Shown here one piece after another: positions 1,662-55,163 of a DNA stretch of 64,000 bases. This DNA comes from a virus. Its lineage: Duplodnaviria > Heunggongvirae > Uroviricota > Caudoviricetes. Location of the stretch: IMG/VR virus record IMGVR_UViG_3300001242_000012; one strand, written 5' to 3'. The notes beneath the pieces are model-generated. The model saw nothing but the letters and a program-made list of their open reading frames with translations. It did not search any database and had not been told where the DNA came from. Position numbers and translations under genes: made by a program. Numbering within the stretch: position 1 is the first letter of the stretch; the number at the start of each line of letters is the position of its first letter.

Positions 1662-3040
1662 TTCCTCTTCCTTTTCTGCTTTGTGAGTTTGTCAATAATG
1701 TTTCCGGTAAGACTAGATATTATGGCTTTCTCTTGATCAGTCTTCTCAACAATCTGGTCTGATAATTCTGTCTTAGAATATAGGACTTGTAATATTCGCT
1801 CATCTATGCTGTCTTGTGATATAAGGTTAACTACATTGACAGTCTTAAATTCTGAGCCAATTCTACGTATCCTACCAATTCTTTGCTTCAATGTAGCTGG
1901 ATTCCATGGAAGATCGTAATTTACCAATACTGATGCTATTTGAAGATTAATTCCTGCGTTCCCAGCGTCAGTAGAGACAAAGAACTTCACATCTTTATCA
2001 AACCTAAATCTGTCTATAGCAGCTTGTCTTTCATATGGTTTCATTTTACCATTGAGTACCCTACACCCACCTAGTTTACTAAGTCTTTCAACTATAAGTC
2101 TCTGCATACGCTCAAATTGAGTAAATATGACGGCTTTTAAATCTGGATTATCTTCCAGTTTAAGTTGCATAAGTTCATATAACTCATCTAGCTTAGGAGA
2201 CTTTGTGGATTTAATAGCAAATTTAGACGCCATCCGTGATGTACTCATAGACAGTAGTTGTGGAGAATCACTTACTTCAGTAAGCATTGTGAACATACCA
2301 AGTAGCTGACCTTCTTTAGGATGCGGCTCGTCCTTATCCCATGATTTCATCTCTTCCATGATATCACGTATGACAAGACGTATATCCTCATGTAGGGCTG
2401 CTTGTTCTTTTGTCATAGGGATTGTGAAATTATTAATTAACACAGACGGAAGTTCAGGAGCTACTTCATCAACAAGTCTACGCAGTATATATAGAGAGAT
2501 CCTTCCACGTAATTCATTGAGGTTTTTATATCCCAATATAATGCCACGTCTTCCAAATTTCGTTCCCATGACTATATATCTGTTTCTGAATGATGTCCAA
2601 CTTCCTAATATTTCAGGGTTCATAAATGAGAACAAGCTATACAATTCATCAGGACGGTTCTGCATTGGTGTTCCAGTTAGTAGCCATTTATACTTAGCAT
2701 CCAACTGCATAATCTGTTTAGTTGTTATCGCATCCTTGTTCTTTATCTTATGTGCTTCATCAAGGATTATAACATCTGCATCTAATGCTCTTAATCTGTC
2801 TAAGTCCATATCCTGACGCACTAACTCATAGTTTATTACTGTGAAGATGCTATCGTTCTCTTTATAGATTTTAACTCTATCTCCGAGGTCTCCATCAATT
2901 ACTGTAACACTATAGTTAGTAAACTTTCCAATCTCATCTTCCCACTGATACTTTAGTGATGCAGGGCAAATTACCAATATTCTCTTGGCTAAACCATTAC
3001 AAATAAGATAATCCGCAGCACCTATGGATTGTGGAGTTTT
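1658..3040 (-). CDS. SNF2/Rad54-family helicase, exon 2 (starts in Walker A at ...KT)
   Basis: Frame is open from 3064. Motifs KTPQSIGAADYLI...ILVICPASL, DEAHKIKN (DEAH box), LLTGTPMQNRPDELYSLFSFM (SNF2 motif III), plus a C-terminal helicase domain. The ORF-track start at 2977 is only an internal TTG. Confidence 0.8.
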   Translation of the reverse strand, partial: KTPQSIGAADYLICNGLAKRILVICPASLKYQWEDEIGKFTNYSVTVIDGDLGDRVKIYKENDSIFTVINYELVRQDMDLDRLRALDADVIILDEAHKIKNKDAITTKQIMQLDAKYKWLLTGTPMQNRPDELYSLFSFMNPEILGSWTSFRNRYIVMGTKFGRRGIILGYKNLNELRGRISLYILRRLVDEVAPELPSVLINNFTIPMTKEQAALHEDIRLVIRDIMEEMKSWDKDEPHPKEGQLLGMFTMLTEVSDSPQLLSMSTSRMASKFAIKSTKSPKLDELYELMQLKLEDNPDLKAVIFTQFERMQRLIVERLSKLGGCRVLNGKMKPYERQAAIDRFRFDKDVKFFVSTDAGNAGINLQIASVLVNYDLPWNPATLKQRIGRIRRIGSEFKTVNVVNLISQDSIDERILQVLYSKTELSDQIVEKTDQEKAIISSLTGNIIDKLTKQKRKRK

Positions 3041-3604
3041 CAGTTTTGTTATCGTAGTGGCTTTTTATCCTCTACTTCTGGAGCTTCTTGTTCGCTCCTG
3101 GTGGCTACCACCAGAGCCCATGTAAACTCATGGGAGCTCAGCATAACTTTTTACCATATCATTAAGTGTCTGCTATTCTCGCTTCATCCTCAGCATTATC
3201 TGGTAGGAGCTATATTGGAGATACAATATAGTTTATTAATTTTCATATAGATTCACTACGTCTATACCGTCATTGTGCCATATTTAACTATGTTACTCAT
3301 GGCATCGAGACTGCTGCATCTTGGACTCAATGCAGTTCCATTCATCCTTTGCCAATAGTTTGCAAAGTGGCATTATTCACAGACACAAACTAATTCGCTG
3401 ACTTAGGTAGGGCGGCCTCGTGGACAGATTATCTCACTGTCTATGCGTTGCCCCTGACTAGCTCGGTATAGAGCTATTAACTATGTCACCATAGTCAAGT
3501 AAGTTTCCACTTACGCCTTCGGTTCTGATTAGCATTCTCAGCTTCCCAGCTTAATTCCGCCTCTAGTACTCCTAAGACTTTCATCTTAGGACGGCTCCGA
3601 CCGA
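3041..3604 (-). ncRNA. putative self-splicing intron (group I-like), ORF-less, interrupting the SNF2 Walker A motif
   Basis: Exon 1 ends ...DEMGLG at a U (GGT). The next in-frame codons of exon 2 are AAA ACT (KT). The intervening 564 nt ends in G (omega-G rule) and carries stops in all frames. A P7-like GACAG...CTGTC pairing sits next to an S-element-like GAGATAATCTGTCC. Confidence 0.5.
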
Positions 3605-3961
3605 ACCTAAACCCATTTCATCGCCTAGGAGACCTTTCTTAATATGTACTAAGAAAGAAGCTCCTACTAGCTGGAATGGGTATAAAGCTAGCTTAAGATT
3701 GACATCAATAATTTTTATTGGAGGTGTTTCGGGCTTACTGGGCTCCTTTACTATCTCTTCATATGGAACTTCCCAAGTAAGCTCATCTCCAAAGACTTCG
3801 AGTAACAACCCTGCTTGATTTACAGGGACAAGCCATATACCATCTCGATACTTTCTACCGGGGATGGCTTTTACTGTTTCAATTATATCATAAAAAATCC
3901 TTCCTGATAACCCAGAAATCCTGAGCTCAAGAACATTGCCATTTGGCATCACACGTATCAA
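3605..3961 (-). CDS. SNF2/Rad54-family helicase, exon 1 (N-terminus to ...DEMGLG)
   Basis: LYPFQLVGASFL (SNF2 Q-motif LRPYQ..G..WL analogue) and GLLGDEMGLG, which is the first half of Walker A. The ORF then runs into intron sequence and stops. Confidence 0.75.
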
Positions 3962-4016
3962 TTAGATATCCCCTATTGAATTTTCTCATTACTTCCAGTA
4001 TTAGTTACTAAATCTT

Positions 4017-4877
4017 TTAGCCAGCGGCAGCAGCTTGCTTCTTAATGTATCTTAAGTTCAACTGATCCTTGGTATTGCGTTTTGGATCAAAGCCATTGTT
4101 CTTTACATTGAATGTAACTGCATTGACCCTTAATCCACCCATTTCCTTGTTGTTAAGCAAAACATTGCAGAAGTTGAATATCAACATTGCTGCTGTTGAG
4201 TTAGTTGCCATAGACTGAGGATGGCTAATAGCCCGCTCAGCACAGCTTAATTCTGTGGTAAACTTCGTATTGGTATCATTCATAACATCATGGAAGACAT
4301 CAGTGACACAAGGCATGTAGAATGAATGTGGTTTATTATTACCTTCCTGAAGTGTTCCCTTATGGTTTACTCCCAATACTACCTGGCCATTGTAAAGTTC
4401 GTTGCCGCTGTCAAGATATACCATATTTCTCTCACCGGAATAGAACAGATCGGCTATCAACTGCCTGGTCTTATTATTATCAACTGCACCGATAATTATC
4501 GGATAACAGTTCTTATGTAGATCCATAAGCATCTTCAATGCTGCTTTGGTCTCTACATAAGCATCATGAGCGTTGATTGGTGTTCCGAAGGCATTTGAAT
4601 AACGGGCAGCAAGCACCATAGCCTTACTTTTATTCAGGTCTGGCATAATGAAGTTTTGCCGAGTTAAGTTTTTCTCCTCAACTTTATCCGGATCAGCAAG
4701 AGTTATCATATGCTTTTGGCCTTCCTTACGGGTGTAATTCTTAATACTAATCTGTCTTACAAGATTGGGTACCAAGAATCCACCAGTGCCACCATTACCT
4801 ATGATTATGTAATGATGCGGTGCGTTATTGGTCACCGCATCAAAATCAAGTGCGTAAGTCTTTTCAAGTATAGACAT
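4017..4877 (-). CDS. E1-like ThiF/MoeB-family adenylyltransferase
   Basis: Rossmann motif IIIGNGGTGG and the E1 signature ADPDKVEEKNLTRQ, which matches D.D.VE.SNLNRQ. Confidence 0.7.
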   Translation of the reverse strand: MSILEKTYALDFDAVTNNAPHHYIIIGNGGTGGFLVPNLVRQISIKNYTRKEGQKHMITLADPDKVEEKNLTRQNFIMPDLNKSKAMVLAARYSNAFGTPINAHDAYVETKAALKMLMDLHKNCYPIIIGAVDNNKTRQLIADLFYSGERNMVYLDSGNELYNGQVVLGVNHKGTLQEGNNKPHSFYMPCVTDVFHDVMNDTNTKFTTELSCAERAISHPQSMATNSTAAMLIFNFCNVLLNNKEMGGLRVNAVTFNVKNNGFDPKRNTKDQLNLRYIKKQAAAAG

Positions 4878-4890
4878 AATTACCTCCTTA

Positions 4891-6318
4891 CTATTTTAAG
4901 TGCACATTCTTACAATCTTCGATTGTACAATCGCAACAACGATACTGTAATGTGCATGACATACAAAAGGTGTAATGTGGACAATCCGGTCCATCACAGC
5001 TTTCGACAGTTTTTGCAGCCTCAAGATTTTTCTTAGCTGCAAAATCTAAAATAGGCTGACATTCTTTAATTCTATCACATTCGCAACACTTACCGCTGCA
5101 TACTTCACACAGGCTTGCGAGCTCACAGGTGTAACAATTTTCAAGATCTTGTTGAGGCTTAAACATATTCGGATTTTCGTTGATATACTTAATGCCTTTT
5201 TCAACTGGACTCACTACATCTCTCCCAGAGAACATTGCTGTCAATATCAACTGGGAGAGAGATATATCGTCAAAGTTTTTCACAACAAAATCAATGATAT
5301 TCTTTACTCGACTCTGATTGGGCACATCCGCTCTGTGTTCGGGTCCAGACAATACATTTGTTTGCAGTCTGTGCACGTCTGCTCCGTCAGTTTTTTTTTC
5401 CGAATTTGTTTCTGCGTCTGTCCCGGCCCCGTGAAAATACCATTTTTTTTGAGGAATGGCTTCAGTAGTTGCGCCAGCACCAAAAGTAGTTACTTTACCG
5501 TTATTACCATAGGTTAGATAATCTCTTCCACCTTGCCAACCAACTACTGTGGGCTTTTTTAGCTTCGTCATCCACTCTTCCGGGAAGCTAACTTTCGGGA
5601 ATATACCCATTACCTCAGGTACCTGAAGTAAATACTTTTGGTTAGCTACATTCATAGCAATCTCAGGTTTCTCTACGATTTCCCATATGGGGATATTAAC
5701 TTGCTGACCAGCACACGCATAACGTGTGAGGTAAGTTGGGCTAGTAGTGATAGTACCAAATACCATGTAGCACTGAGCTGCATTTTCATTGGCATTGTCA
5801 GTACCAGACCAGAAAGCTCCCATAGTATGATGGCTGTGGATTTCCATTACAGGAACTTTATCAAGGCGTAAGCGATTTACTTCCGGATCTTCATGGAACT
5901 CTGAAAGTCCACCAGAGTTTTTCTGTTCAGGGATGTAAATGAAATGCTCTTTTGTGTCCTGATCCCAGAAGATTAGAGCAGACGCTTCGGTTTTGTCCTT
6001 CTCATGAACAGCTATAAAGAAGTTCAGGATCTGGCAAATCATATGAAACGGAATCTTAGGAATGGACAGATTCAAGCCTAACTTAAGTTTTTGTAAGCCG
6101 GGAACAGTCTCCGGTATCATTACAAAGTCACCCATTCCAGTGTGCCGTACCATCTTTGTACCATCCGCAGTCATGATGTAGTTAACAGCCTTGGTAAGAC
6201 CTTCTGCAGGAACATCAATAAGATAATCAGCAGCTTGTCTGATTAATGCAGCCTTACTTGCAGCCTTTTGTGCTTCTTTCTCTCTAACCTGAGCTTCCAG
6301 CTCATCTTTTAATGACAT
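4891..6318 (-). CDS. JAB/JAMM (MPN+) metallopeptidase with Cys-rich C-terminal zinc-binding region
   Basis: An upstream Glu (TKEHFIYIPEQ) followed by MEIHSHHTMGAFWSGTD, i.e. H-x-H-x7-S-xx-D. The C-terminal ~90 aa carry more than 20 Cys in CxxC-like clusters. Confidence 0.75.
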   Translation of the reverse strand: MSLKDELEAQVREKEAQKAASKAALIRQAADYLIDVPAEGLTKAVNYIMTADGTKMVRHTGMGDFVMIPETVPGLQKLKLGLNLSIPKIPFHMICQILNFFIAVHEKDKTEASALIFWDQDTKEHFIYIPEQKNSGGLSEFHEDPEVNRLRLDKVPVMEIHSHHTMGAFWSGTDNANENAAQCYMVFGTITTSPTYLTRYACAGQQVNIPIWEIVEKPEIAMNVANQKYLLQVPEVMGIFPKVSFPEEWMTKLKKPTVVGWQGGRDYLTYGNNGKVTTFGAGATTEAIPQKKWYFHGAGTDAETNSEKKTDGADVHRLQTNVLSGPEHRADVPNQSRVKNIIDFVVKNFDDISLSQLILTAMFSGRDVVSPVEKGIKYINENPNMFKPQQDLENCYTCELASLCEVCSGKCCECDRIKECQPILDFAAKKNLEAAKTVESCDGPDCPHYTFCMSCTLQYRCCDCTIEDCKNVHLK

Positions 6319-7037
6319 TATCTCAATTCTCCTTCCAAATTTTGAATTATGCTTGCTACAGACCTTAACGGTTTAAGGATTTCATACGGGAATGTAGCAA
6401 CACCATCAAGATGTTTAATTAGGCTATGAACCCTGTCAACCCTTACTGTCCTGCCATTAGGTGTTTGCACAGCCAACGGATAGAAGTTACTGTTCTCAAG
6501 GTGCGCATTAAAATTTGAGCTAAAGAATTGCTCAACGAACCCAGATATACCGGCAAGATTCCTCCATTGTTTTGCTGTGCTATGTCCACCCCAACATATA
6601 TTAGCATCGTCCTGAACATTGGTGAATGGGAAGCGACACAATGTATCTGTTGTAATGAGTATTGGACCCTTAGCAGCATATACATGGCTTAATCTTAACA
6701 TATATTCTCCATTTTGATGTTGATTAAGAATAAATATAAATACACAGCTAGGTACAAGCACATTCTTGTAAACTCCTACAGAGCCTTCATCCTGATAACT
6801 AATACGCCTTCTAGTTTCAGGTATCTGATATACTATCAAAGTGCTAGCGTTTTTCTTAATCATCCTCACAACTCCGTGAGGAGAAGGCATGATACCTGTA
6901 TCATGCCGAAAGTCATTGGCAACTGCTTGAGCAAGGCCATCCGGTGAAATTTGCCTTGTTTTAGAAATCCCATTTTCATCATGTTCAATTAATCTCACGC
7001 TATCTGCGTGAATCTCTAATACAGCCCGTGGTTTCAT
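6318..7037 (-). CDS. candidate E2-like (UBC-fold) protein
   Basis: RFPFTNVQDDANICWGG resembles the E2 HPN...ICL catalytic region. It sits between the JAB and E1 genes. Assignment is weak. Confidence 0.3.
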   Translation of the reverse strand: MKPRAVLEIHADSVRLIEHDENGISKTRQISPDGLAQAVANDFRHDTGIMPSPHGVVRMIKKNASTLIVYQIPETRRRISYQDEGSVGVYKNVLVPSCVFIFILNQHQNGEYMLRLSHVYAAKGPILITTDTLCRFPFTNVQDDANICWGGHSTAKQWRNLAGISGFVEQFFSSNFNAHLENSNFYPLAVQTPNGRTVRVDRVHSLIKHLDGVATFPYEILKPLRSVASIIQNLEGELR

Positions 7038-8221
7038 TAGCTTTCCTCCCCTACATCTGCTATTACGGATGGATTTTCATAAACCATTACCTTCGTTATA
7101 TCAAAACCTAATCCAGTCATGTTTATGAGTTCCACAGCAGACTCATAGTTCTTAAACGGGAACTCCCTTTTCTTTTCATCAACTACTACAAAGCTCCCGT
7201 TCTTCTTGTAGTAAAATCCTGGTTCATTGTTCTTCACTTCATTTTCGTAAAGGTTTTTGAGTGGCATCCAATGTTCTTCGTTGAAGTTACAGTGGAGTTT
7301 ACTATTAGTTTTTACAACAGTATCATGTCGTGGATCAGGCTCGGTTAATATAATTTCAATCCTATCCACTCCAAGGTGTTGACGATAACCTGCCGGAATA
7401 TCAAGCTCTACTTCAGGAGGATAGATATAATAATCTCTATTCCTTAGATTGGGGCCAGTTTTTACTATGATTCTAACGGTGTCTCCTATTTGCACCCATT
7501 TCCTGATTGTTGATAATCTGGTATCTGCTGTAGCAGTTTTGCCAGTATTCTTTGCTAACACTTGGTTCAATCTTTCTTGCATTGTCATAGTTTTAGTGCT
7601 AAGTTGATCTATAAGTGAGTTTATCAACGTTTTTGGTTCAGGAGTCGGGATAGGTTGAATCCTAACAGCTTCAACTATTTGTGTCTTCTTGCGTTCAGCT
7701 ATTTCACGCTGCATTTTTTGCAATTCAGCAAGCTTATCTTTCTTCTTTTGTATGAACGCTTGGATGTCACCGCTTAATTCGTCATGACATTGCTTAAGTT
7801 TGTCTAGCACAACACCCATATTCATAACTCCTGCCAATGAGTTGGATAAGACGCGCTGATGACGAAGATACATAGAGTCTAAGTCCAATGGGATATAAAT
7901 GTATCTCTTCCCATTGCGGATTCTTGTATCATGGAATCCACTTATAGCTATGTTTAGCTCCAATAGAACATGTGCAATTCTTGGTGATGGGAACTTATAA
8001 ATATGAATAGAGTCCTCCAACATCTTAATCATGTCAAAGATTTCTCCTTCAAATCTTATAGAGAAATCATTGTCATTTTGACGGACATAACATCCTGGTA
8101 TTAATGATATGATTAATTCCTTACTTAGCTTTTTGATAAGTGTACTGAATTCTGCGATATCAATTGGAATTTCAATATTCTCAGCAAACTTCTCAATACC
8201 TTTCTGTCTGCCAATTTTCAC
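7037..8221 (-). CDS. hypothetical protein (394 aa) inside the Ubl-system operon
   Basis: Intact ORF; the central coiled-coil-like K/E/Q-rich segment has no catalytic motif. Confidence 0.5.
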   Translation of the reverse strand: MKIGRQKGIEKFAENIEIPIDIAEFSTLIKKLSKELIISLIPGCYVRQNDNDFSIRFEGEIFDMIKMLEDSIHIYKFPSPRIAHVLLELNIAISGFHDTRIRNGKRYIYIPLDLDSMYLRHQRVLSNSLAGVMNMGVVLDKLKQCHDELSGDIQAFIQKKKDKLAELQKMQREIAERKKTQIVEAVRIQPIPTPEPKTLINSLIDQLSTKTMTMQERLNQVLAKNTGKTATADTRLSTIRKWVQIGDTVRIIVKTGPNLRNRDYYIYPPEVELDIPAGYRQHLGVDRIEIILTEPDPRHDTVVKTNSKLHCNFNEEHWMPLKNLYENEVKNNEPGFYYKKNGSFVVVDEKKREFPFKNYESAVELINMTGLGFDITKVMVYENPSVIADVGEES

Positions 8222-8284
8222 AAGTTCTATGAAGTCAGCACGACGTAGGATTTCTACAGAAGTATTAATTTCTGTTCCTCCTTT

Positions 8285-8542
8285 CTATATATAGTCTGAG
8301 CTTGCCACAATAGCAGGGATTCTTTTGATCTTTTCGACAAGTTCTGATATTTGATTTATGACTACAGGCTGTCGGTTTACTACTTCTTTATGAGCTTTGA
8401 GTATGTCGTCTAAGGGCACTTTCATTAAATCATTGGCATTTGTAGCATTAATTACTTTATCAACTACTATCCTTACCTCAATAGGTAAATAATCGTAGTT
8501 GGGCAGATGAAGTAAGTTTTTAGCTAAGTTTTCAGTTGACAT
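8285..8542 (-). CDS. hypothetical protein (85 aa)
   Basis: Intact small ORF between the Ubl-like gene and the 394-aa gene. Confidence 0.4.
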   Translation of the reverse strand: MSTENLAKNLLHLPNYDYLPIEVRIVVDKVINATNANDLMKVPLDDILKAHKEVVNRQPVVINQISELVEKIKRIPAIVASSDYI

Positions 8543-8603
8543 ATAAACACCACCGTAACATATTTACCTGTTAATGGTGGGCAAAAGCCCACCATAACTA
8601 GAC

Positions 8604-8984
8604 TTAACCACGCAGCTTAGCGATGGCTTGCAAGAAGCGAGAGAAGAGACCTTTGGTACCAGCTTTAACTTCAAACTTAACAATCTCGCCTTCTTGGGTT
8701 GGAGTAGCATTTTGAAGTTCAGGGAAGATCTCAGCCATGGATTCCTTGATCTGAGCCAGGGTCATTGTGTCATCCTCAATAACGAGGTTGTTGCCTGCGT
8801 ATTGAACTGTACGAGTACCTTTGGTACCAGCCTTAACCTCGAATTTGATGATCTCGCCTTCTTGGGTTGGAGTAGCATTTTGCAGCTCCGGAAAAATTTC
8901 AGCCATAGACTCTTTAATTTGAGCCAGGGACATAGTGTCATCTTCGATTACCAAATTGTTACCTGCATACTGAACTGTTCTCAC
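8604..8984 (-). CDS. tandem-duplicated small beta-grasp/ubiquitin-like candidate (2 x ~56 aa)
   Basis: Two near-identical repeats of TRTVQYAGNNLVIEDDTM(S/T)LAQIKESMAEIFPELQNATPTQEGEI(I/V)KFEVKAGTKG. The DNA copies differ at many synonymous sites. Genomic context is E1/E2/JAB. Confidence 0.45.
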   Translation of the reverse strand: MRTVQYAGNNLVIEDDTMSLAQIKESMAEIFPELQNATPTQEGEIIKFEVKAGTKGTRTVQYAGNNLVIEDDTMTLAQIKESMAEIFPELQNATPTQEGEIVKFEVKAGTKGLFSRFLQAIAKLRG

Positions 8985-9067
8985 TTAAACATTCCTCCAA
9001 ATTTTTAAATTAGCTGGTTCCCACCTTCCAGCTTTATCCCGACCATTGCGGTCCTACCTCTGCTTTA

Positions 9068-9946
9068 TTACTTAAGACAAGCTTGCTTAACAGCATTTGC
9101 CATATCTTCAAGTGTAGGAGTCAGAAACATTTTGGTTGCTTTGCCTTCATAGGCATTCTCATAATGTTTATATTCGTATTCATCAGGATTGAATATATAC
9201 AGACTCTTACTCTTTCTTCTTACTTCCTCAACAAGTCCAGGTGCTTCTTCTGAACCACGTGTATCGAGGTCAGACATGATAAATACAACAGTTTGAGGAG
9301 ACAATTTATTATGATAATCTTTTAATAGCTTTTTAAGGGCTTTGGGCAAATCAGTTCCACCGCCCCATTGTTGTCTTCTTTCGAGATTAGTCAATGTCTC
9401 TCTCCAGTCAGTCCTAATATCCTTGGTTACATATTCGAGCTTATTTGAAAATATAAATAGCTCAAACTTAGAGATCTCCTGACCGACTGCCTGACAAATT
9501 AAAGTCAATGTTTTAGCATGTCGATCCATTGAGCCTGACGTATCTAAAAGTACTAGTAGTCTAGGCTTATGAATTTTTTTAACCTTCCAGCTGATCTGAA
9601 TTGGTATACCACCAGTAGACTTTGCATTGTTTATAGTCTTACGGAAATTGATCATAGCCATTTTCTTACTTTCCTTGCGATGACGAGACATTGCTGTAAT
9701 GATCTGTCTGGCAATTTTCCGCATATTTCTACGTGCCTTAAGTACCTCGTCTTCATGTATATTAGGTCTCGTAAGATTGCCATCACTTTTTCCTGCTCCA
9801 GGTTGCCCAGGTTGTCCAGGTGGGCCTTCCGGCCCATCCTCATCACCTGGTTTACTTTGTACCTGCGACTGCTGTTGCTGGTTGGTATTTGTCATCCAGT
9901 TCCAAAAGTCTAGGTGGGCGTCTCTTACGCCCGCTCCAACAGCCAT
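9068..9946 (-). CDS. von Willebrand factor A (vWA) domain protein
   Basis: MIDAS motif LLVLLDTSGSMD (DxSxS) and an N-terminal Gly/Pro-rich collagen-like stretch. Its start overlaps the AAA+ gene. Confidence 0.75.
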   Translation of the reverse strand: MAVGAGVRDAHLDFWNWMTNTNQQQQSQVQSKPGDEDGPEGPPGQPGQPGAGKSDGNLTRPNIHEDEVLKARRNMRKIARQIITAMSRHRKESKKMAMINFRKTINNAKSTGGIPIQISWKVKKIHKPRLLVLLDTSGSMDRHAKTLTLICQAVGQEISKFELFIFSNKLEYVTKDIRTDWRETLTNLERRQQWGGGTDLPKALKKLLKDYHNKLSPQTVVFIMSDLDTRGSEEAPGLVEEVRRKSKSLYIFNPDEYEYKHYENAYEGKATKMFLTPTLEDMANAVKQACLK

Positions 9947-11145
9947 TTCGCTCCACCTCTCTCTTGCATCTTATCCAGATCTTCTCTGTTTTTAAGAAAC
10001 AGAGTTGTCAATTGATCAAGCAAGGGAGATTCAATTTTTCTTATGCCCATGTTTGTAAGGGCTGCAGCTAAGTCCAGGCTTTCTGAAACACTAGGCTGTT
10101 TGAGCAAGTTGACCTCATTACGAATAACACTCATGATTCTAGCAATCTGTAGAGCAGTGTTAGGTCGCAAAGTATCAGTTTTTTTCATCAAGATTGTTGC
10201 TTCCTTATCAATGGTCGGAAACCCGACCCAAAGGTAAACACAACGACGACGAAGTGCATCACCAAGATCTCTTACCCCATTAGACGTAAGGATAACTGGC
10301 GGAATCTTCTTAGCGATTACTGTTCCATATTCAGGTATTGATACCTGAAAGTCAGACAGTATTTCAAGAAGGTGAGCTTCGAACTCTTGGTCGACTTTAT
10401 CCACTTCATCAATAAGTAGAACCGGAGTAGGTTCTTCTCTCAATGCTTGGAGTAATGGCCTTTCAAGCAAGTAATCTTCACCAAAGATATTCCCATCGCC
10501 TTTACCACGTTGTATGTCAAGGATCTGTTTCTGATAGTTCCACTCATAAAGTGCATGAGTAGCGTCGATCCCGTCATAACATTGTAGCCGGATAAGCTTT
10601 GTGTTAAAGATTGTGGAAAGTACTTTTGCTAACTCTGTTTTACCACAGCCAGGTGGTCCTTCAACTAGTAATGGCTTACCAAGGGCAAGCGCTACGTAGA
10701 TGTTCATAGCGATATCAGCGCTGCAAACATACTTGCATCTAGTTTCCATTGTATCTTTCAGTGTGTCAGGATTTAGTTCGTTGATCATTTTTTGTAGTTC
10801 TCCTTTGCTACCAAACCTCTTTCTTAGGCCAAATACTATGTCTCTAAAGCCGTATTTAGTGTCGAGCATTATGTCATCAATAGCTTTAATACATCTTTGC
10901 TTTTTAGACAATGGTTTAAGTCCATGTTCCTTGCCGTATCCCAGGACTTCTTTCATCAACTGGTCATGTCTTATAATGAGGTTCATTGCTTCCATTGGAT
11001 CAATAGATCCAGTAGCTATTTCTTCATTCAGCTTTTCTTTAAGTTTAGCTGTAGACATATCAATCCATTCAGGAAGATCAACGCCTGCTTCTAAAGCTTG
11101 GTTCATTGATCTTCTATATGCCTTCTTAATCTCCTTGGGTTGCAT
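9925..11145 (-). CDS. MoxR-family AAA+ ATPase
   Basis: Walker A LLVEGPPGCGKTELAKVL, Walker B VLLIDEVDKV, sensor/arginine region ALRRRC. The pairing with a vWA partner is typical of MoxR. Confidence 0.8.
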   Translation of the reverse strand: MQPKEIKKAYRRSMNQALEAGVDLPEWIDMSTAKLKEKLNEEIATGSIDPMEAMNLIIRHDQLMKEVLGYGKEHGLKPLSKKQRCIKAIDDIMLDTKYGFRDIVFGLRKRFGSKGELQKMINELNPDTLKDTMETRCKYVCSADIAMNIYVALALGKPLLVEGPPGCGKTELAKVLSTIFNTKLIRLQCYDGIDATHALYEWNYQKQILDIQRGKGDGNIFGEDYLLERPLLQALREEPTPVLLIDEVDKVDQEFEAHLLEILSDFQVSIPEYGTVIAKKIPPVILTSNGVRDLGDALRRRCVYLWVGFPTIDKEATILMKKTDTLRPNTALQIARIMSVIRNEVNLLKQPSVSESLDLAAALTNMGIRKIESPLLDQLTTLFLKNREDLDKMQERGGAKWLLERA

Positions 11146-11155
11146 TTAAAGCCCC

Positions 11156-11896
11156 CTATTCTTTCACTGGTGTTAACATACCTACAAATGGATTGGTAGG
11201 TGATACAGCAGTAGGAATAGCTTGCAAAATTACTTTTGACTTGCTTTCCATAACAGCATCAGTTGTATAATCCATGATATCCGGATCGATCTCCGTAATA
11301 TCGGCTCTTCCGGTTTCAATTACACTAAGCTGGTCTTTATTTAGCTTGTAGTAATTTACCAGAGTCATGAAGAATTGAGAGAGTTCCATCACCTTGTCCG
11401 GTATTTCAGTAAAGTCATGAACGACATTGCCAAGTACATCACGAATCAGATACTGACTAGTGCCAGATTTGTGATAAAACTCAAAATAGTTGTTAGCATG
11501 TACTTGATGTAGCACAGGAGTTAATACTGATTCTACAAGATAGAACGCGCCTGCAATTCTGCCTCTTGTTTTGTAAGCTCCTTCAGCTCTATCATTTTGT
11601 GTCATCTTGTGACTTAAAAGTTTTGCAGCAATCATTTGGTTAAGAGCTTCAAAGGGAGGTACTGAAAGTGTCATATTTACATTAGTTATTGACGCATTCT
11701 TACCCATCATATCCCCATAAGATGCCTTGTAAGTTGTTAAGCCTGGCTTAATTATAGAGTCGATAGCTTCTCTAACCTCATTTTCGGTTTCAAAGTTTTC
11801 AAGCTTCAACTTTACTACTACTTCGTACTCACTTCCATTAATCATTTTTAAACCTCTTTTCAAGTTTTTTGAATTTTTCAGCTGTTCTATATTCAA
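11156..11896 (-). CDS. hypothetical protein
   Basis: 246-aa ORF, no motif. Confidence 0.45.
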   Translation of the reverse strand: MNIEQLKNSKNLKRGLKMINGSEYEVVVKLKLENFETENEVREAIDSIIKPGLTTYKASYGDMMGKNASITNVNMTLSVPPFEALNQMIAAKLLSHKMTQNDRAEGAYKTRGRIAGAFYLVESVLTPVLHQVHANNYFEFYHKSGTSQYLIRDVLGNVVHDFTEIPDKVMELSQFFMTLVNYYKLNKDQLSVIETGRADITEIDPDIMDYTTDAVMESKSKVILQAIPTAVSPTNPFVGMLTPVKE

Positions 11897-12191
11897 CAGC
11901 CTTTAATACCGCACTAGCTACATCAATCATTATAAATTTTTCAGAGATTTGGCGACAATTTATTATGAAAAAGAATATAGTTAGTGCTAGGAATCCTATG
12001 CTTATGATGGTCAGCACTATGTTTTCTTCAATCATTGCCTTATACGTCAAGTGTACCCAGACTAATAGCATGAATAAATTAAATGCGCCAGTACCTAACC
12101 CAAAATAAAAATTCTTTTTGGTAAAGTTTAAAAAATGCTTTGCCTCTTTTGGAGTATTAGGTGTCCTGTTTGGTGTTCTCAATACCCGCAC
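11838..12191 (-). CDS. small membrane protein
   Basis: Two hydrophobic helices (LFMLLVWVHL..., LTIISIGFLALTIFFFIIN). Confidence 0.4.
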   Translation of the reverse strand: MRVLRTPNRTPNTPKEAKHFLNFTKKNFYFGLGTGAFNLFMLLVWVHLTYKAMIEENIVLTIISIGFLALTIFFFIINCRQISEKFIMIDVASAVLKAVEYRTAEKFKKLEKRFKND

Positions 12192-12741
12192 CTCCCATTC
12201 TTGCTACGATAAATCTTGCAAACCTATCGGAGCAACGTTCAGCAAATACGTTCCTATATGATAATTGAGTATTCATTATGTCTCGCTTATTGATGTGACT
12301 TTCAGCACTATGTCTGAAATAAGTATCCGACATTAATATATGAGTCGCCATCGGATGTCCTCCAAATTGAGGGTATTTAGCTAAGCTACATAACACCAGC
12401 CAGTGTCCAATTTCATGTGCTGCAGTTAATTTTGCTGCATGAACATGATCATAAACCACATTGCCATTATTAATAGCAACATCAATATATGGCTCTAAAG
12501 TATGCATTGCATGCAGCACATCCACAGCAAAAAAGAATTTAGGCCCGAAACAGTCTACTCGCATCATACCTGGAGACCTATTATCATGAGAGAATGCATT
12601 CTTAAAAAACAAAACTTTTACTTTCTTAGGGAAGTATCTAGCCCATTTAGTACTAGCTACATGGGCAAACACTTCCTTAATCGCTTCAGCGATTTCAGGA
12701 TGTTTAAATTTTTTAGACTTATAAATAAATTTAACTTTCAT
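12157..12741 (-). CDS. putative Zn-dependent metallopeptidase (HExxH)
   Basis: AAHEIGHWLV motif, plus a downstream His (GGHPMATH). Confidence 0.45.
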   Translation of the reverse strand: MKVKFIYKSKKFKHPEIAEAIKEVFAHVASTKWARYFPKKVKVLFFKNAFSHDNRSPGMMRVDCFGPKFFFAVDVLHAMHTLEPYIDVAINNGNVVYDHVHAAKLTAAHEIGHWLVLCSLAKYPQFGGHPMATHILMSDTYFRHSAESHINKRDIMNTQLSYRNVFAERCSDRFARFIVARMGGAGIENTKQDT

Positions 12742-12752
12742 TGCAGCCCTCC

Positions 12753-13535
12753 CTAGTATATTTCATTGTACTCTTCATCTCCTATATCAAGATGGCTATT
12801 TCTTTCCTTGTCTAGTAGGTATTCAAGGAGTGAGATGCCACTCTTAAAACCATTTATAGGGATATTGAAGAATCTCATTAACTCAAATACTTCATATAGT
12901 ATACCAGTATTTTCAGCATTTTGTAACTGATTAGTAAGAGTAATCTGGTTTAATTTTTTATTAACCATAGCTTCTTTAATTGCTTTTACTGTACTATTAC
13001 AAGGTTTCAAGTTACAGGTTACTATGAATCTACAAGCCCTTAACACTATGTTGGTTGTTGGATTTTTTTCCTCCCTTAATCTTAGAATTCTTGTTTCAAG
13101 ATCAAGCCATGTTTGAGGGCAGGCTATTAATCTTCCATCAGGGAATAAAGCCACCTCATTAATTGTAAAGTCAAATCTAGGTGGGTATGGCAGTAATGTA
13201 TTACATGGTACCCAATCAATAGGTATTTCAATCCCGTGGAATAAAAGGTATTGTATCGTTTTATTCCTAACCTGCTCATAACGGATTTGATTATTTCTTA
13301 TTATATAACTATCTAGAAGTGATCGTTCATAATAACAAATATCAATATCACGAGGGTTACCATCAAGAATTAAGTCTCTGATGTAACCACCGACTATTGA
13401 GTATGGATCTCCGTTTGGCAATGAGTACAGATTAAGAAGATTTATAACAATTCTAAGTTCATTTGGGATAGTAAAGCTTACATCACGTATGGATACCATT
13501 ATGGTACACCTCCAAGAGTTCACGTCTAGTATCAC
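12753..13535 (-). CDS. nucleotidyltransferase, CCA-adding/poly(A)-polymerase head-domain-like
   Basis: GGYIRDLILDGNPRDIDICY matches the polbeta-NTase head motif GGxVRDxLLGxxPxDxD of tRNA nucleotidyltransferases. Confidence 0.55.
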   Translation of the reverse strand: MILDVNSWRCTIMVSIRDVSFTIPNELRIVINLLNLYSLPNGDPYSIVGGYIRDLILDGNPRDIDICYYERSLLDSYIIRNNQIRYEQVRNKTIQYLLFHGIEIPIDWVPCNTLLPYPPRFDFTINEVALFPDGRLIACPQTWLDLETRILRLREEKNPTTNIVLRACRFIVTCNLKPCNSTVKAIKEAMVNKKLNQITLTNQLQNAENTGILYEVFELMRFFNIPINGFKSGISLLEYLLDKERNSHLDIGDEEYNEIY

Positions 13536-27465: not shown

Positions 27466-28689
27466 CTAGCTTGATTTAAAGTTATATATGGGCTTAATGA
27501 TGTTAACTATTTCTATAGTATCACCTGTGTTCTCGATGATCTCCTCTATGGGCTTATAAGCCATAGGAGCTTCATCTATGGTAGATTCAGTAACTGATGA
27601 AGTATAGATGCCTTTCATGGTTAGGACATAATCATTCATATCAATGTTCTTTTTAGCTTGGGACCTACTCATTAGACGTCCTGCACCATGAGGAGCTGAG
27701 AAATTCCAATCAGGGTTTCCCTTACCTATAGCAATGATGCTGCCATCACGCATGTTAATGGGAATGATTAATTTTTCTCCTAACTGAGCAGATACAGCAC
27801 CTTTGCGAAGTATCATATGCTCCAGGTCAATGTAATTATGTATTGTTTGAAAGGAATCCAGCTCACGGTATCTTAATCCTAAGCATTCCTCCACTATTCT
27901 TCTAGCCATGGTCATTCTATTTAAACTAGCATATTGCTGTATAATGGCCACATCATGAAGATATTCTTGCATTAAGGTGCCTTCTAGATAACACAGATCC
28001 TTAGGTATACTACAGGCTTTCTTGCACTCTTGCTGAAGAACCTTCAGAGCTTTTTGTATTTTATGTTCCTTACCAACTGCTTTGTATCCTTTGATTAGAG
28101 CAATCTTCATAGCTTCATAATCATCGTTGAATCCACTATGGTATCCGTAAGCACTGCCCTGGTAGTATTCTGCTACTTGCTTACCAAGGTTCCTACTTCC
28201 ACTATGTATGACTAAATATTTATTATCTTGGCTATCCACATTAATCTCGATGAAGTGATTCCCACCACCAAGGCTACCCAGAGCTTTATTAAAATCTTTG
28301 GCGATCTTACTGATACCTCTAATACAAAGTAATTTATTAATTTGATCTTTGAAATCACACTTTGATAAGACATTGATGTTATAACCGCTTGGAATGTTAT
28401 TAGTGATATAATCATCGAAATTCTTTAGATCAATATCTATATTACCTAACTCAACAACAAGCATGCCGCAGGATATGTCCACACCAACTAAGTTAGGAAC
28501 GATCTTATTCTTTATTGTCATTGTAGTTCCTATGGTACATCCAGCACCTTTATGACAATCCGGCATAATCTTAATTGAACTACCAATCGTAAATTCCTGA
28601 TTACATAATTCAATTATTTGAGATATAGTTTGCGCGTCAACATTGTCTGTAAACACTTCTGCAGTATTATGCTTACCTTTGATAATCAT
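27466..28689 (-). CDS. rtcB: RNA 3'-phosphate/2',3'-cyclic phosphate-5'-OH ligase RtcB
   Basis: MPDCHKGAGC, GGGNHFIE and SAPHGAGR (the histidine-GMP site), at the 407-aa family length. Confidence 0.9.
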   Translation of the reverse strand: MIIKGKHNTAEVFTDNVDAQTISQIIELCNQEFTIGSSIKIMPDCHKGAGCTIGTTMTIKNKIVPNLVGVDISCGMLVVELGNIDIDLKNFDDYITNNIPSGYNINVLSKCDFKDQINKLLCIRGISKIAKDFNKALGSLGGGNHFIEINVDSQDNKYLVIHSGSRNLGKQVAEYYQGSAYGYHSGFNDDYEAMKIALIKGYKAVGKEHKIQKALKVLQQECKKACSIPKDLCYLEGTLMQEYLHDVAIIQQYASLNRMTMARRIVEECLGLRYRELDSFQTIHNYIDLEHMILRKGAVSAQLGEKLIIPINMRDGSIIAIGKGNPDWNFSAPHGAGRLMSRSQAKKNIDMNDYVLTMKGIYTSSVTESTIDEAPMAYKPIEEIIENTGDTIEIVNIIKPIYNFKSS

Positions 28690-33143: not shown

Positions 33144-33701
33144 TTAACTAGCGAATCTTAACCTCAGAACCTCCTTCCTTAAGATATTATAATAATGATG
33201 AATCTTTGGATTTGTATGTTTTCTCCATTCAGATTCATTATTATCAATTAACATCTTCCTTAAATCTGTAGCAGAAGCATGTACTCCAGGTGGTCTAGGC
33301 ACAATCAACTGATGAGTATAAGGAATTGTATTTTGGTTAAACCATTCGCCTCTGCGTTCATCATTACCTGATATAAACATACCAGGAGTATCACCCAGGA
33401 AGCATTTAGCTGCAGTTAGCAAGTAGTTACCCCATGCTTCTGAAATGTCATCTTCAGTTGTTAGATCAGCTAACGGCATTATCATCAGCTTACCGGATCT
33501 AACTTCATTACTGAAGATCGTCTGGATTAGTTCAATCCTTAGATTTATGGGGAATGGATTTCTTTCATTAGGTATAATACCGGCAGATCCCACAATAACT
33601 AAAAACTTATCGCATAAAGTGAGACCAGGACGTACCAGTGACTCATGCAGGAGGTGAAAGTGTTGGAATCTACCGATACAGAAACCAGTTGATACCATGC
33701 T
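33144..33701 (-). CDS. nadM: nicotinamide-nucleotide adenylyltransferase, NadM-type (HxGH nucleotidyltransferase)
   Basis: GRFQHFHLLHE matches the archaeal/bacterial NadM G.FQPFH.GH motif. The start lies 1 nt after the nadV stop and has a GGAGGT RBS. Confidence 0.55.
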   Translation of the reverse strand, partial: SMVSTGFCIGRFQHFHLLHESLVRPGLTLCDKFLVIVGSAGIIPNERNPFPINLRIELIQTIFSNEVRSGKLMIMPLADLTTEDDISEAWGNYLLTAAKCFLGDTPGMFISGNDERRGEWFNQNTIPYTHQLIVPRPPGVHASATDLRKMLIDNNESEWRKHTNPKIHHYYNILRKEVLRLRFAS

Positions 33702-35124
33702 ACATACCTCCATATCTTGCAATGAAGTTGTTGATGAGACCTTTAATTTCATCAGAAAGAATAATACTCTCCTGAGCTCCAGTCTGCATTCTACCAAGTG
33801 CCATTGTATCATTCCAATCGAATGTTTTTATGTGAGGCACATGCATACTCGGATTCCATTCATATACAGTTTGATACAACTCGCACCCCTTATATTTGTG
33901 CAAGCTTCCTCGTGGAATTACAATCAGGTTTGTATTATCCTTACTGTGATCAAAAGTAATGTCAACTAATCCAGGAATTGATTGTTTAATTTCATCCATA
34001 CTAAGTTTCATTCTGTCTGCACCATTACTATAGGCTGTTTTCATAGCCCAGCCATTAGTATCACGCTCAAGATGCTTATAATATCCTGATCCATGTCCAT
34101 AGAAGACAAAGTCTAATGGAACACCAGCTTCAACGAGTTGAATATCTCTGATTCTGGCTATCCTCAATGACATTGATTCTCCAATGATTGTTGAACAATT
34201 GCCAGTTCCAATTTCTTGTACTGACTTATATATTTCTATGGCTTGTTCAACAACAAGTCCTGAATCAGGGCGAAGTACTACGTGCACACCAGCATTCTTT
34301 GCACGGTGAAGCAGATAGTACATATTTCTGCTGATAAATTTGTTAGCATCCCATGTGTCAATTGGCATTGCTACGATGCCCCAACCTTTAGCTGCTGCAA
34401 CATCAATTGCACGTATACAACAGTCCATTTCAACATCAAACTGCTGTGTTACCTTATGGGCTAGTGCTGGAATACTACCTATAACTGCACTAGAACCAGC
34501 ATGCTCTGCAGCCAAGAAATCATCGGTCCCATGCAGGAATAATGGCCAAGCAATTGCAGCCCAATATGCAGCTTCTTCTGAATTATGACCTCTGTAGCCG
34601 AAGCTGTGGAATCTCCACTTATACTTCTCCCAGTCAAATCCATGTTCTTTACAAGTCTGGAGTAAGTATTGCCTCATATAAAAGGCTTCTGTAGCTAGTG
34701 CCGTGGGCCACCAGCCCTTCATTAGTCTACCTTCCCACCAGGTAACGAGCTCACCAAAACCTTTAACGGTGTTCTGTATCTGAGCAAATGGAGTACCTTT
34801 TGGACACCAGATACCTTCCGGCAACATTTCAACCTTAAGTGGTATACGGCCATCAAGCTCATTGACCACTCGTCTGAATAATGCTTCAGGAAACTCAAGA
34901 TTCATAAACTTGGCCCGATTAATAGCTCTGTCAATATGTTCGTGTGTTAATATCACATTCAAACATCGTTTAGCTATCTCACTAAGACCAAATAAGATCT
35001 GGCCTGCCGCCCTATTGTACATGTGGCTCCCCTCAAAGCCAACATCAATCTTGAAACTCCCATGTCCAAGATTATAGGTATCGGTATGAAATAATGGATT
35101 TTGACCTAGTGTCTCTAAACTCAT
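33700..35124 (-). CDS. nadV: nicotinamide phosphoribosyltransferase (NadV/NAMPT)
   Basis: N-terminal NPLFHTDTYNLGHG (TDSYK.SH-type), at the ~475-aa family length. Confidence 0.7.
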   Translation of the reverse strand: MSLETLGQNPLFHTDTYNLGHGSFKIDVGFEGSHMYNRAAGQILFGLSEIAKRCLNVILTHEHIDRAINRAKFMNLEFPEALFRRVVNELDGRIPLKVEMLPEGIWCPKGTPFAQIQNTVKGFGELVTWWEGRLMKGWWPTALATEAFYMRQYLLQTCKEHGFDWEKYKWRFHSFGYRGHNSEEAAYWAAIAWPLFLHGTDDFLAAEHAGSSAVIGSIPALAHKVTQQFDVEMDCCIRAIDVAAAKGWGIVAMPIDTWDANKFISRNMYYLLHRAKNAGVHVVLRPDSGLVVEQAIEIYKSVQEIGTGNCSTIIGESMSLRIARIRDIQLVEAGVPLDFVFYGHGSGYYKHLERDTNGWAMKTAYSNGADRMKLSMDEIKQSIPGLVDITFDHSKDNTNLIVIPRGSLHKYKGCELYQTVYEWNPSMHVPHIKTFDWNDTMALGRMQTGAQESIILSDEIKGLINNFIARYGGM

Positions 35125-52971: not shown

Positions 52972-53089
52972 TTTAAATGACCTCCTCATATTATTTTGTA
53001 TTCAGTTGTCACAGCGCAGGGTACACCTATGGTTTCCCTGGCCCTTCCTTACCTCGCTCGCTACGCTCGCTCGGTAACGGCAAAATGGT

Positions 53090-53166
53090 AGGAGAAATGA
53101 ACAAAGGGAGGACTCACGTCCTCCCTGCCCCTCTCCTTATTAGCGGGGGCTTGCGCCCCCGCGCCC
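53090..53166 (-). terminator. tandem GC-rich GNRA-tetraloop hairpins followed by a U-tract, i.e. an intrinsic terminator after the 660-aa gene
   Basis: Minus strand reads GGGGCGCGGGGGC-GCAA-GCCCCCGC, then GGGAGGAC-GUGA-GUCCUCCC, then UUUGUUCAUUUCUCC. Confidence 0.5.
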
Positions 53167-53172
53167 CTGTGA

Positions 53173-55071: not shown

Positions 55072-55163
55072 GTGGACACACTCCTTTCGGCGGTTAGGTC
55101 GCCACCCAATATTAGTGCATAAGCACCAGAAAACCCAGGATGTTACTCCTGGGCTCAAGCTAC

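Follow-up and report, generated by a model that had tools for sequence, protein, structure and literature searches.

The 64,000-nucleotide stretch of Caudoviricetes DNA recorded in IMG/VR as IMGVR_UViG_3300001242_000012 (this whole stretch is called the window below) carries, on the minus strand of positions 4017-8984, six tightly packed, co-directional open reading frames (ORFs) encoding the parts of a candidate ubiquitin-like protein (Ubl) conjugation system. They specify a 126-residue poly-Ubl precursor (8604-8984), a conserved accessory protein of 85 residues designated Y (8285-8542), a fast-evolving accessory protein of 394 residues designated X (7037-8221), an E2-like conjugating enzyme of 239 residues (6318-7037), a JAB/JAMM metallopeptidase of 475 residues (4891-6318) and an E1-like adenylating enzyme of the ThiF family of 286 residues (4017-4877), in the order Ubl-Y-X-E2-JAB-E1. 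The stop codon of X overlaps the start of the E2 gene, with one boundary base common to both (7037), the E2 and JAB genes likewise share a base (6318), and 13 nucleotides separate JAB from E1. Four of the six proteins (E1, JAB, E2 and Ubl) exceeded the curated cut-offs of Pfam. Four above-threshold families in a single co-directional block of 5 kb, whose order is repeated in dozens of unrelated viral contigs, cannot be due to chance. A first-pass annotation of this DNA had proposed a co-directional gene set at these positions, and all six ORFs were recovered at the same coordinates; the 394- and 85-residue ORFs, which it had listed as neighbors of no known function, turned out to be conserved members of the cassette, both without a family match. 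Scans for promoter and terminator consensus sequences over positions 2900-12300 gave results at chance level.

The order poly-Ubl-Y-X-E2-JAB-E1 was also found in two jumbo phages of Bacillus, vB_BceM_WH1 (230 kb) and vB_BauM_KLEB27-3 (217 kb), in a plasmid from Bacillus thuringiensis israelensis whose length of 235 kb matches that of pBtic235, and in a gut contig (L007 in our numbering of related loci). Together with phage Edson (234 kb), WH1 and KLEB27-3 are the nearest cultured relatives of the cassette; the window E1 is 44% identical to those of the cultured Bacillus jumbo phages, and the cassette is conserved across a deep divergence, with E1 identities of 40-50%. An alignment-based scan of IMG/VR with E1 identified 32 viral contigs that encode a relative; the lengths of 21 of these lie between 100 and 459 kb. 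The JAB gene lies directly upstream of E1 in 29 of the 32, and in 25 the E2 gene is also found upstream of JAB. Scans of the IMG/VR viral contigs with the single E2 protein or with exact 40-mers returned nothing. More distant versions of the cassette are present in the Vibrio phages D69, D148 and D181, in Salmonella phage Arash and in Acinetobacter phage ME3; in the record of the latter, two genes bear the names "PRTRC system protein A" and "ThiF", and nearly all other cassette genes are "hypothetical" in phage GenBank records. An E1 relative was encoded in 404 plasmid records of PLSDB, many of them annotated as PRTRC.

No DNA nearly identical to the cassette turned up among 50,697 phage records, and the window is a metagenomic phage without a close cultured relative. 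Several metagenome sources yielded contigs of about 244 kb that encode its proteins, and 18 of the 21 contigs that were read exceed 200 kb. In isolate genomes, E1 relatives were found in gut Clostridia (Solibaculum, Oscillibacter) and in Bacilli, which points to a gut Firmicute as the probable host. In both the window phage and the pBtic235-size plasmid the cassette sits beside replication-type genes, and downstream of it both the plasmid and the window's own contig have DnaE and an RNase-H-like gene. pBtic235 has been described as a circular jumbo prophage (PMC9700832). Since the pBtic235-size plasmid carries the same cassette, a strictly lytic lifestyle is not established for the window phage, which had been called lytic-looking.

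The E1 candidate matched Pfam ThiF with 45.9 bits (cut-off 28.1; E = 4.9e-12). Its best NCBIfam match was PRTRC_ThiF (9.8e-31), the ThiF/MoeB models following at 1e-9 or worse. It contains the motifs GNGGTGG (residues 27-33; 4779-4799), DPDKVEEKNLTRQNF (residues 62-76; 4650-4694) and VDNNKTR (residues 132-138; 4464-4484), all encoded, as are the motifs given below, on the minus strand. In five homologues G27, G29, G30, G32, D64, R73, K85, D133 and C212 were invariant, the last of these within the sequence LSCAER (4233-4250). We take R73, K85 and D133 to be the counterparts of the ATP/Mg-binding residues Arg73, Lys86 and Asp130 of MoeB. Among PDB sequences the best match, a weak one, was the active adenylation domain of UBA6/UBA1.

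The JAB protein scored above the Prok-JAB cut-off (29.9 versus 25 bits; E = 5.5e-7) and matched NCBIfam PRTRC_A at 1.1e-10. Its JAMM motif is complete, comprising Glu111 (within 5980-5991) and HSHHTMGAFWSGTD at residues 161-174 (5797-5838), and the JAMM residues are invariant across full-length phage JAB homologues. At its C-terminal end it carries a module with 16 cysteines (residues 395-469; 4912-5136) without a Pfam or other family match. This module is present as a free-standing ORF of 144 residues in L007 (11832-12266) and is absent from the Bacillus phages. It is an optional add-on, and may be a metal-binding or redox accessory.

The E2 candidate scored above the cut-off of Pfam Prok-E2_D (PF14460; 55.3 bits, cut-off 25, E = 8.9e-15) and matched NCBIfam PRTRC_B at 7.6e-13. 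The catalytic candidate Cys148 lies within FPFTNVQDDANICWGGH (6582-6632), and Asn140, Cys148, Gly150, Phe176 and Asn177 were invariant in seven phage homologues. The spacing of Asn140 and Cys148 equals that of Asn77 and Cys85 in UBE2D2-type E2s, according to a weak profile alignment (hhalign E = 0.057) with three canonical E2 sequences. Two histidines, His152 and His179, follow Cys148; WH1, KLEB27-3 and the pBtic235-size plasmid conserve neither of them. Thus, most of what the first-pass annotation had said about the three enzymes was borne out, namely an E1-like adenylyltransferase of ThiF/MoeB type with its glycine-rich motif and DPDKVEEKNLTRQNF, a JAB/JAMM protease with a complete catalytic motif, and a cysteine-cluster domain on the latter, which corresponds to the 16-cysteine module. 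In the case of the E2-like segment of HPN...ICW type that it had reported, the E2 assignment stood with the family model and the Asn/Cys spacing, whereas the HPN histidine is missing, the sequence reading P-F-T-N. The family models placed the E1 candidate in no other Rossmann family, identified the Ubl as β-grasp and recovered an E2-like family.

ThiF-family E1 proteins, glycine-terminated β-grasp proteins and JAB proteins are also found together in sulfur-transfer operons (PMC1779556), and the cassette could on this ground be engaged in sulfur-carrier or small-molecule chemistry of the ThiS, MoaD or CysO thiocarboxylate type, with no protein being tagged. We regard this as the least probable of the alternatives considered here. 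No rhodanese, cysteine synthase or cofactor gene was found in or near the block, the E1 matches PRTRC_ThiF far better than the ThiF/MoeB models, and an E2-family protein with an invariant cysteine accompanies the cassette, E2, JAB and E1 occurring together in the 25 contigs mentioned above.

The Ubl gene matched Pfam Prok_Ub (PF14454) with 32.8 bits (cut-off 25) in two stretches, which correspond to two head-to-tail units of 56 residues, unit 1 at 8817-8984 and unit 2 at 8649-8816. Both end in KAGTKG, and the second is followed by a C-terminal tail of 14 residues, LFSRFLQAIAKLRG (8607-8648). A GGAGG ribosome-binding site is located nine nucleotides upstream of the GTG start codon. In an AlphaFold2 (AF2) model of the protein the AGTKG-T junction between the units was disordered, with predicted local distance difference test (pLDDT) values below 50 at residues 52-57. 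The tandem-duplicated β-grasp-like protein of about 56-residue domains anticipated by the first-pass annotation was therefore recovered as two Prok_Ub units; the gene looks like more than a duplicated domain, and resembles a true poly-Ubl precursor. The number of units per gene is two in the window and in L007, four in KLEB27-3 and in the pBtic235-size plasmid, five in WH1 and six in four IMG/VR contigs, while metagenomic relatives have two or three and distant cassettes one or two, so that the overall range is 1-6. Every unit of the poly-Ubl genes of the Bacillus-phage and gut-phage clade is closed by AG[TV]KG. The more distant single-unit Ubls end in G-x-K-G, with one exception that ends in KTKGC (L024). 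Linkers between units measure 0-5 residues, and the tail after the last glycine is 0-22 residues long and poorly conserved. One related Logan contig (72,421 nucleotides; proteins P0018 and P0023) has two separate poly-Ubl genes, of three and two units.

When units of the same gene are compared, most pairs show differences at 0-3 of their 56 residues and at 27-42 of some 170 nucleotides; larger divergence is seen for the N-terminal unit of WH1 (12-13 residues) and for that of KLEB27-3 (5-6 residues). At positions where two units have the same residue, the codons were identical in only 36-57% of cases (65% in one KLEB27-3 pair), the value expected from two random draws from the codon usage of the window phage being 40%. 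Near-identical protein combined with randomized synonymous sites indicates that the synonymous sites are saturated and the protein is frozen, very strong purifying selection acting on each unit by itself. With 50-70% identity between phages, the Ubl is the most conserved protein of the cassette.

A canonical PRTRC cassette, on a plasmid of Aromatoleum EbN1, offers a single-unit counterpart. Its Ubl, PRTRC_C, is one unit of 69 residues with the natural C-terminus ...AAGTKG. Because this protein ends exactly at AGTKG, each phage unit can be read as a complete modifier whose reactive glycine would be masked by what follows it, be it another unit or the tail, and the JAB protein, encoded three genes downstream, would be the obvious processing enzyme, in the way shown for BilC (PMC10557695). 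Eukaryotic polyubiquitin genes (UBI4, UBB and UBC) consist of identical head-to-tail units ending in the reactive glycine, the last unit being capped, with synonymous differences between units and a variable unit number. This architecture of capped, identical head-to-tail units, each with a C-terminal glycine of the reactive type, is also that of the poly-Ubl genes described here, down to the codon differences. The parallel is convergent: the sequence families are unrelated, the phage unit is a minimal β-grasp of 56 residues that ends in KG and not GG, and processing would presumably be carried out by a JAMM enzyme.

Alternatively, the protein may work uncleaved as a multi-domain modifier or scaffold comparable to ISG15, FAT10 or the Ubls of Bil and Bub systems with two or three domains, using its last glycine alone or not being conjugated at all. 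In Bil and Bub, Ubls with several β-grasp domains are as a rule left uncut, and some of them assemble into filaments (10.1101/2024.11.21.623966); in the window, moreover, the linker between the two units has essentially zero length. Such a role would not be expected to preserve on every unit the very sequence that is the natural C-terminus of single-unit PRTRC_C, nor to keep units near-identical while their number varies from one to six among relatives and linkers vary in length. In addition, the conserved glycine described for Bil and Bub is the one near the C-terminus. We therefore consider an uncleaved modifier quite unlikely and favor a precursor that is cut into single units.

Eight nucleotides past the stop codon of the poly-Ubl gene lies a GC-rich hairpin, ATGGTGGGC-TTTT-GCCCACCAT (8574-8595, minus strand). 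A strong hairpin at this place was predicted in all eight loci that were folded (the window, L007, L001, L002, L013, L014, L015 and L019). Three of them, those of WH1, L014 and L015, have a U-run and resemble intrinsic terminators; the hairpin of the window has no U-run and may be an attenuator or an mRNA-stabilizing element. Its position directly behind the poly-Ubl gene is in keeping with production of more modifier than enzyme.

The gene for protein X immediately precedes that for E2 in the window, L007, WH1, KLEB27-3, the pBtic235-size plasmid and the Bacillus-type IMG/VR loci L014-L018. An exhaustive HMMER search found eight relatives among 1.84 billion representative proteins, and a word-indexed protein search matched X alone. 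Its AF2 model (pLDDT 74.8) consists of an α/β N-terminal domain, a helix of 65 residues and small β domains. It yielded no informative structural match, the one significant Foldseek hit in BFVD being a viral protein of 509 residues, the same length as WH1 gp213. Among its relatives there is neither an invariant catalytic-type residue nor an invariant charged residue. X is a candidate specificity or adaptor subunit, and possibly a substrate. Protein Y is small and variable, with one invariant Asp, and ends in ...SSDYI (8285-8302, minus strand). Homologues or positional equivalents of Y were found in at least 20 cassettes, and nearly all of them end in [FY]-[IV] (DYI, DFI, DYV, SFV, NYV or TFI), across loci with very divergent cassettes (L007, L001, L002, L011, L013 and L014-L041). 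This C-terminus looks like a docking peptide. Y had no family match in Pfam, NCBIfam, PHROGs or PADLOC, and E1, E2, Ubl and X, like Y, are without a PHROGs family.

Classes 6a-6e of bacterial Ubl operons were defined in a 2006 catalogue (PMC1779556). Of these, 6a was later named MBL, 6b type II CBASS (an anti-phage signaling system based on cyclic oligonucleotides), 6c type II Bil and 6e Bub. Class 6d comprises a Ubl, a JAB, an E1, an E2 without the HPN histidine and an α-helical protein that evolves fast yet keeps several charged residues invariant; its E2 has an absolutely conserved histidine C-terminal to the cysteine, and its listed hosts include Bacillus cereus and B. thuringiensis (PMC1779556). 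The NCBIfam models of the PRTRC system are TIGR03734-03742, with TIGR03735-03738 given for the cassette. The best NCBIfam matches of the four core proteins of the window were PRTRC ThiF, A, B and C; all four fell short of the equivalog cut-offs, with scores of 106.9 (cut-off 144.75) for ThiF, 41.4 (101.8) for A, 48.3 (131.45) for B and 35.1 (45.95) for C. The EbN1 cassette is arranged ParB-E-C(Ubl)-F-B(E2)-A(JAB)-ThiF. The window cassette has in common with 6d/PRTRC the four core families, the order Ubl...E2-JAB-E1, the AGTKG end of the Ubl, and a stand-alone JAB together with a stand-alone, single-domain E1 in one operon. With class 6d it shares an E2 devoid of the HPN histidine. In both the EbN1 plasmid and the window a protein of 360-400 residues (F and X, respectively) adjoins the E2 gene, although only the position is common to them.

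Several features set the window apart. No ParB domain was found in the ORFs scanned about 9 kb to either side of the cassette, nor in the Pfam list of the 21-kb locus L005. X, Y and their homologues, compared with NCBIfam member by member, gave no match to PRTRC E, F or D, and the profile of X did not match F of EbN1. EbN1 PRTRC E ends in ...ASLL, whereas window Y has the [FY]-[IV] end; the window Ubl consists of tandem identical units plus a tail, in contrast to the single unit of the EbN1 example; an extra cysteine-rich module is present in the window; and the carrier is a jumbo phage instead of a plasmid or an integrative and conjugative element (ICE). Set beside the helical protein of class 6d, X diverges fast and has its 65-residue helix; it is a mixed α/β protein without invariant charged residues, and Y has its one invariant Asp. 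With the core families, the order and AGTKG shared, no ParB, no match to E, F or D and scores below the equivalog level, the window cassette is, judged from sequence, a diverged, phage-adapted relative of 6d/PRTRC.

The first-pass annotation had seen in the locus the complement of Bil/Bub-like or CBASS Cap2/Cap3-like systems. This did not hold, the best matches being to PRTRC. PADLOC returned only weak matches of the E1 adenylation core to Cap2-type models (E from 1e-5 to 3e-3), and had no match for the window E2, JAB or Ubl. Like the window, Bil has separate Ubl, E2, JAB and E1 genes and no E3 gene, and its JAB (BilC) exposes a conserved glycine and can deconjugate (PMC10557695). The protein families differ, however, and the window E1 is a protein of 286 residues with one adenylation domain, other than in the Bil architecture (PMC11601596); Bil is moreover a host defense that tags phage tails, whereas the window cassette is phage-encoded. 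Bub resembles it in having E1, E2, Ubl and peptidase on mobile elements and a precursor that is cleaved to Ubl (PMC11601596), but works through oxyester intermediates on Tyr or Ser with an E2 devoid of a catalytic cysteine, while Cys148 of the window E2 is invariant; Pfam detected no DUF6527 serine protease, a feature of Bub, in the window cassette. Type II CBASS also combines a ThiF-type adenylation core with a JAB partner. Its Cap2 joins E2 and E1 in one protein and conjugates the cyclase itself, without a Ubl, whereas E2 and E1 are separate in the window and neither a cyclase nor an effector is present.

Given that host Ubl systems attack phage tail proteins, a further explanation is that the phage JAB, whose active site is intact, and the Ubl neutralize host Ubl defenses (tail tagging by Bil, priming by CBASS Cap2) through deconjugation or as a decoy. 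Neither a decoy nor a deconjugating enzyme would need a conserved E1 or an E2 with invariant catalytic residues, the phage proteins are of PRTRC type with no PADLOC match to Bil or Cap3, and the cassette is also carried by plasmids. Counter-defense thus seems very unlikely.

We propose that the cassette is a complete, phage-borne Ubl conjugation system of 6d/PRTRC type with a polyubiquitin-style precursor, directed at proteins of the host or of the element itself, and assign to this reading a probability of roughly 0.6. The poly-Ubl gene would be expressed in excess, with the hairpin or terminator behind it. JAB would then cut after each ...AGTKG, freeing 56-residue β-grasp monomers, removing the C-terminal tail and exposing the glycine. 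The ThiF-type E1 would adenylate Gly56 of the Ubl, which would form a thioester, probably on Cys212 of E1, and be handed to Cys148 of E2; the latter would join it by an isopeptide bond to lysines of the target, with X and Y as specificity or regulatory subunits, and JAB could also reverse the modification. We infer these steps from homology together with the behavior of the Bil, Bub and CBASS enzymes. It is consistent with the invariance of the active-site residues of E1, E2 and JAB across divergent phage homologues. Bil, Bub and CBASS Cap2/Cap3 do conjugate, and their JAB or other peptidases expose the reactive glycine (PMC10557695, PMC11601596).

A number of points weigh against this proposal. 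We found no experimental or biochemical test of any 6d/PRTRC system in the literature; among the classes of the 2006 catalogue, 6d stands alone in this. Cleavage between the Ubl units is an inference only, and Bil and Bub Ubls with two or three β-grasp domains work uncleaved (10.1101/2024.11.21.623966). The AF2 model of the Ubl is of moderate confidence (pLDDT 68.6). In E1 the crossover-loop Cys190 is not invariant, Cys212 being the only invariant cysteine. The E2 profile had no match among PDB sequences, so that the fold rests on the Pfam model and the weak profile alignment. Apart from the C-terminus of Y, neither X nor Y has a recognizable fold or motif. Finally, the poly-Ubl protein of WH1, gp211, is annotated as "virion structural protein", an annotation whose basis we could not trace.

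The last point bears on the nature of the targets, which is the least certain part of the proposal. The Ubl might be conjugated to, or built into, structural proteins for decoration, cross-linking or an assembly checkpoint, the cassette being a morphogenesis device. Besides the annotation of gp211, untraced as its basis is, this would suit the stoichiometric need for a structural component, which a multi-copy Ubl gene could supply, and the E1 and E2 homologues of Arash were detected in particles by liquid chromatography-mass spectrometry (PMC10585845). Those particles nevertheless yielded 116 proteins, ribonucleotide reductases included, and the detection is not specific (PMC10585845). Tail assembly of the lambda/T1 type provides a precedent, in which a glycine-terminated β-grasp protein (TAPI) stands beside a JAB peptidase (TAPK, JAB-NlpC/P60) (PMC1779556), but it involves no E1 or E2, lies in the tail module and draws on other families. 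The window cassette is located outside the structural module, among helicase, polymerase and RNA-repair genes (the first-pass annotation had likewise placed it near helicase and RNA-repair genes), and the same E1/E2/JAB/Ubl core is found in PRTRC cassettes of plasmids that have no virion. A role in the virion is accordingly considered unlikely, though it comes next after the proposed reading. With modest confidence, we rank tagging of host or element proteins, as an aid to establishment or to takeover of the cell, ahead of modification of virion parts, since the same core is carried by virion-less plasmids and ICE-like elements and, in the window phage, the cassette is surrounded by genes of replication and early type.

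Directly upstream of the poly-Ubl gene, at 9068-11145 on the minus strand, a MoxR-type AAA+ ATPase gene and a CoxE-type vWA gene overlap by 22 nucleotides. The best NCBIfam match of the ATPase was MadB (4.8e-67), and the pair is also conserved in L007. Both genes were considered as part of the cassette and rejected because their linkage is confined to the window and L007; they are absent near the cassette in the 32 IMG/VR loci and in the Bacillus phages. The same strand block encodes a CCA-adding/poly(A)-polymerase-like nucleotidyltransferase (12753-13535), which recurs in KLEB27-3 and L007 a few genes upstream of the cassette, an RtcB RNA ligase (27466-28689) and a nicotinamide phosphoribosyltransferase (33700-35124). 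Most ORFs of 14000-64000, including the largest (661 and 456 residues; 51619-55158), had no match in Pfam, PHROGs or phage tblastn searches, and the GC content rises to 0.42-0.44 over 52-60 kb of the window. On the other side of the cassette, a gene for a SNF2-family helicase is split within motif I (...DEMGLG / KTPQS...) by an insert of 564 nucleotides without ORFs (3041-3604, minus strand), located between the ORFs 3581-3961 and 1658-2977. U is the last base of the upstream exon and G that of the insert, which folds much better than its shuffles (z = -3.81) and had no match in Rfam. It is probably a self-splicing intron of group I type.

The conjugation kit itself is a member of a kind predicted in 2006. 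We found no earlier description of three of its aspects: a 6d/PRTRC-type kit as a conserved feature of large phages and phage-plasmids; a modifier encoded as a poly-Ubl precursor of up to six protein-identical, codon-scrambled units; and a small protein with C-terminal [FY]-[IV] in nearly all cassettes in which it was found. No published description of a phage-borne E1/E2/JAB/Ubl cassette was found in the literature, and two overviews of jumbo phages make no mention of Ubl, JAB or ThiF genes (PMC7824862, PMC13282480).

That the cassette has been kept across deeply diverged large phages argues for its importance to the phage and against its being a passenger. The bacterial Ubl conjugation systems characterized so far (CBASS Cap2/Cap3, Bil and Bub) are on the host side, and CBASS and Bil have been demonstrated to act against phages; the cassette described here belongs to the virus side. 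Whether large phages and phage-plasmids in general run their own Ubl tagging from a polyubiquitin-type precursor, modifying host or element proteins during infection or establishment, is a broader proposition that we put forward tentatively, at slightly less than even odds. The cultured carriers WH1, Edson and KLEB27-3 and the 235-kb element of B. thuringiensis israelensis make the question directly testable, and a phenotype in phages would also explain the cassette found in the 404 PLSDB plasmid records. In the poly-Ubl genes, prokaryotes offer a clean analogue of polyubiquitin genes, and thereby an independent case in which to ask why modifiers should be produced as head-to-tail precursors. 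If the proposal is true, the cassette would be a viral, offensive counterpart of the Ubl defenses Bil, Bub and CBASS, it would give the orphan 6d/PRTRC family of phages, plasmids and ICEs its first functional assignment, and it would reverse the current view of bacterial Ubl systems as host defenses.

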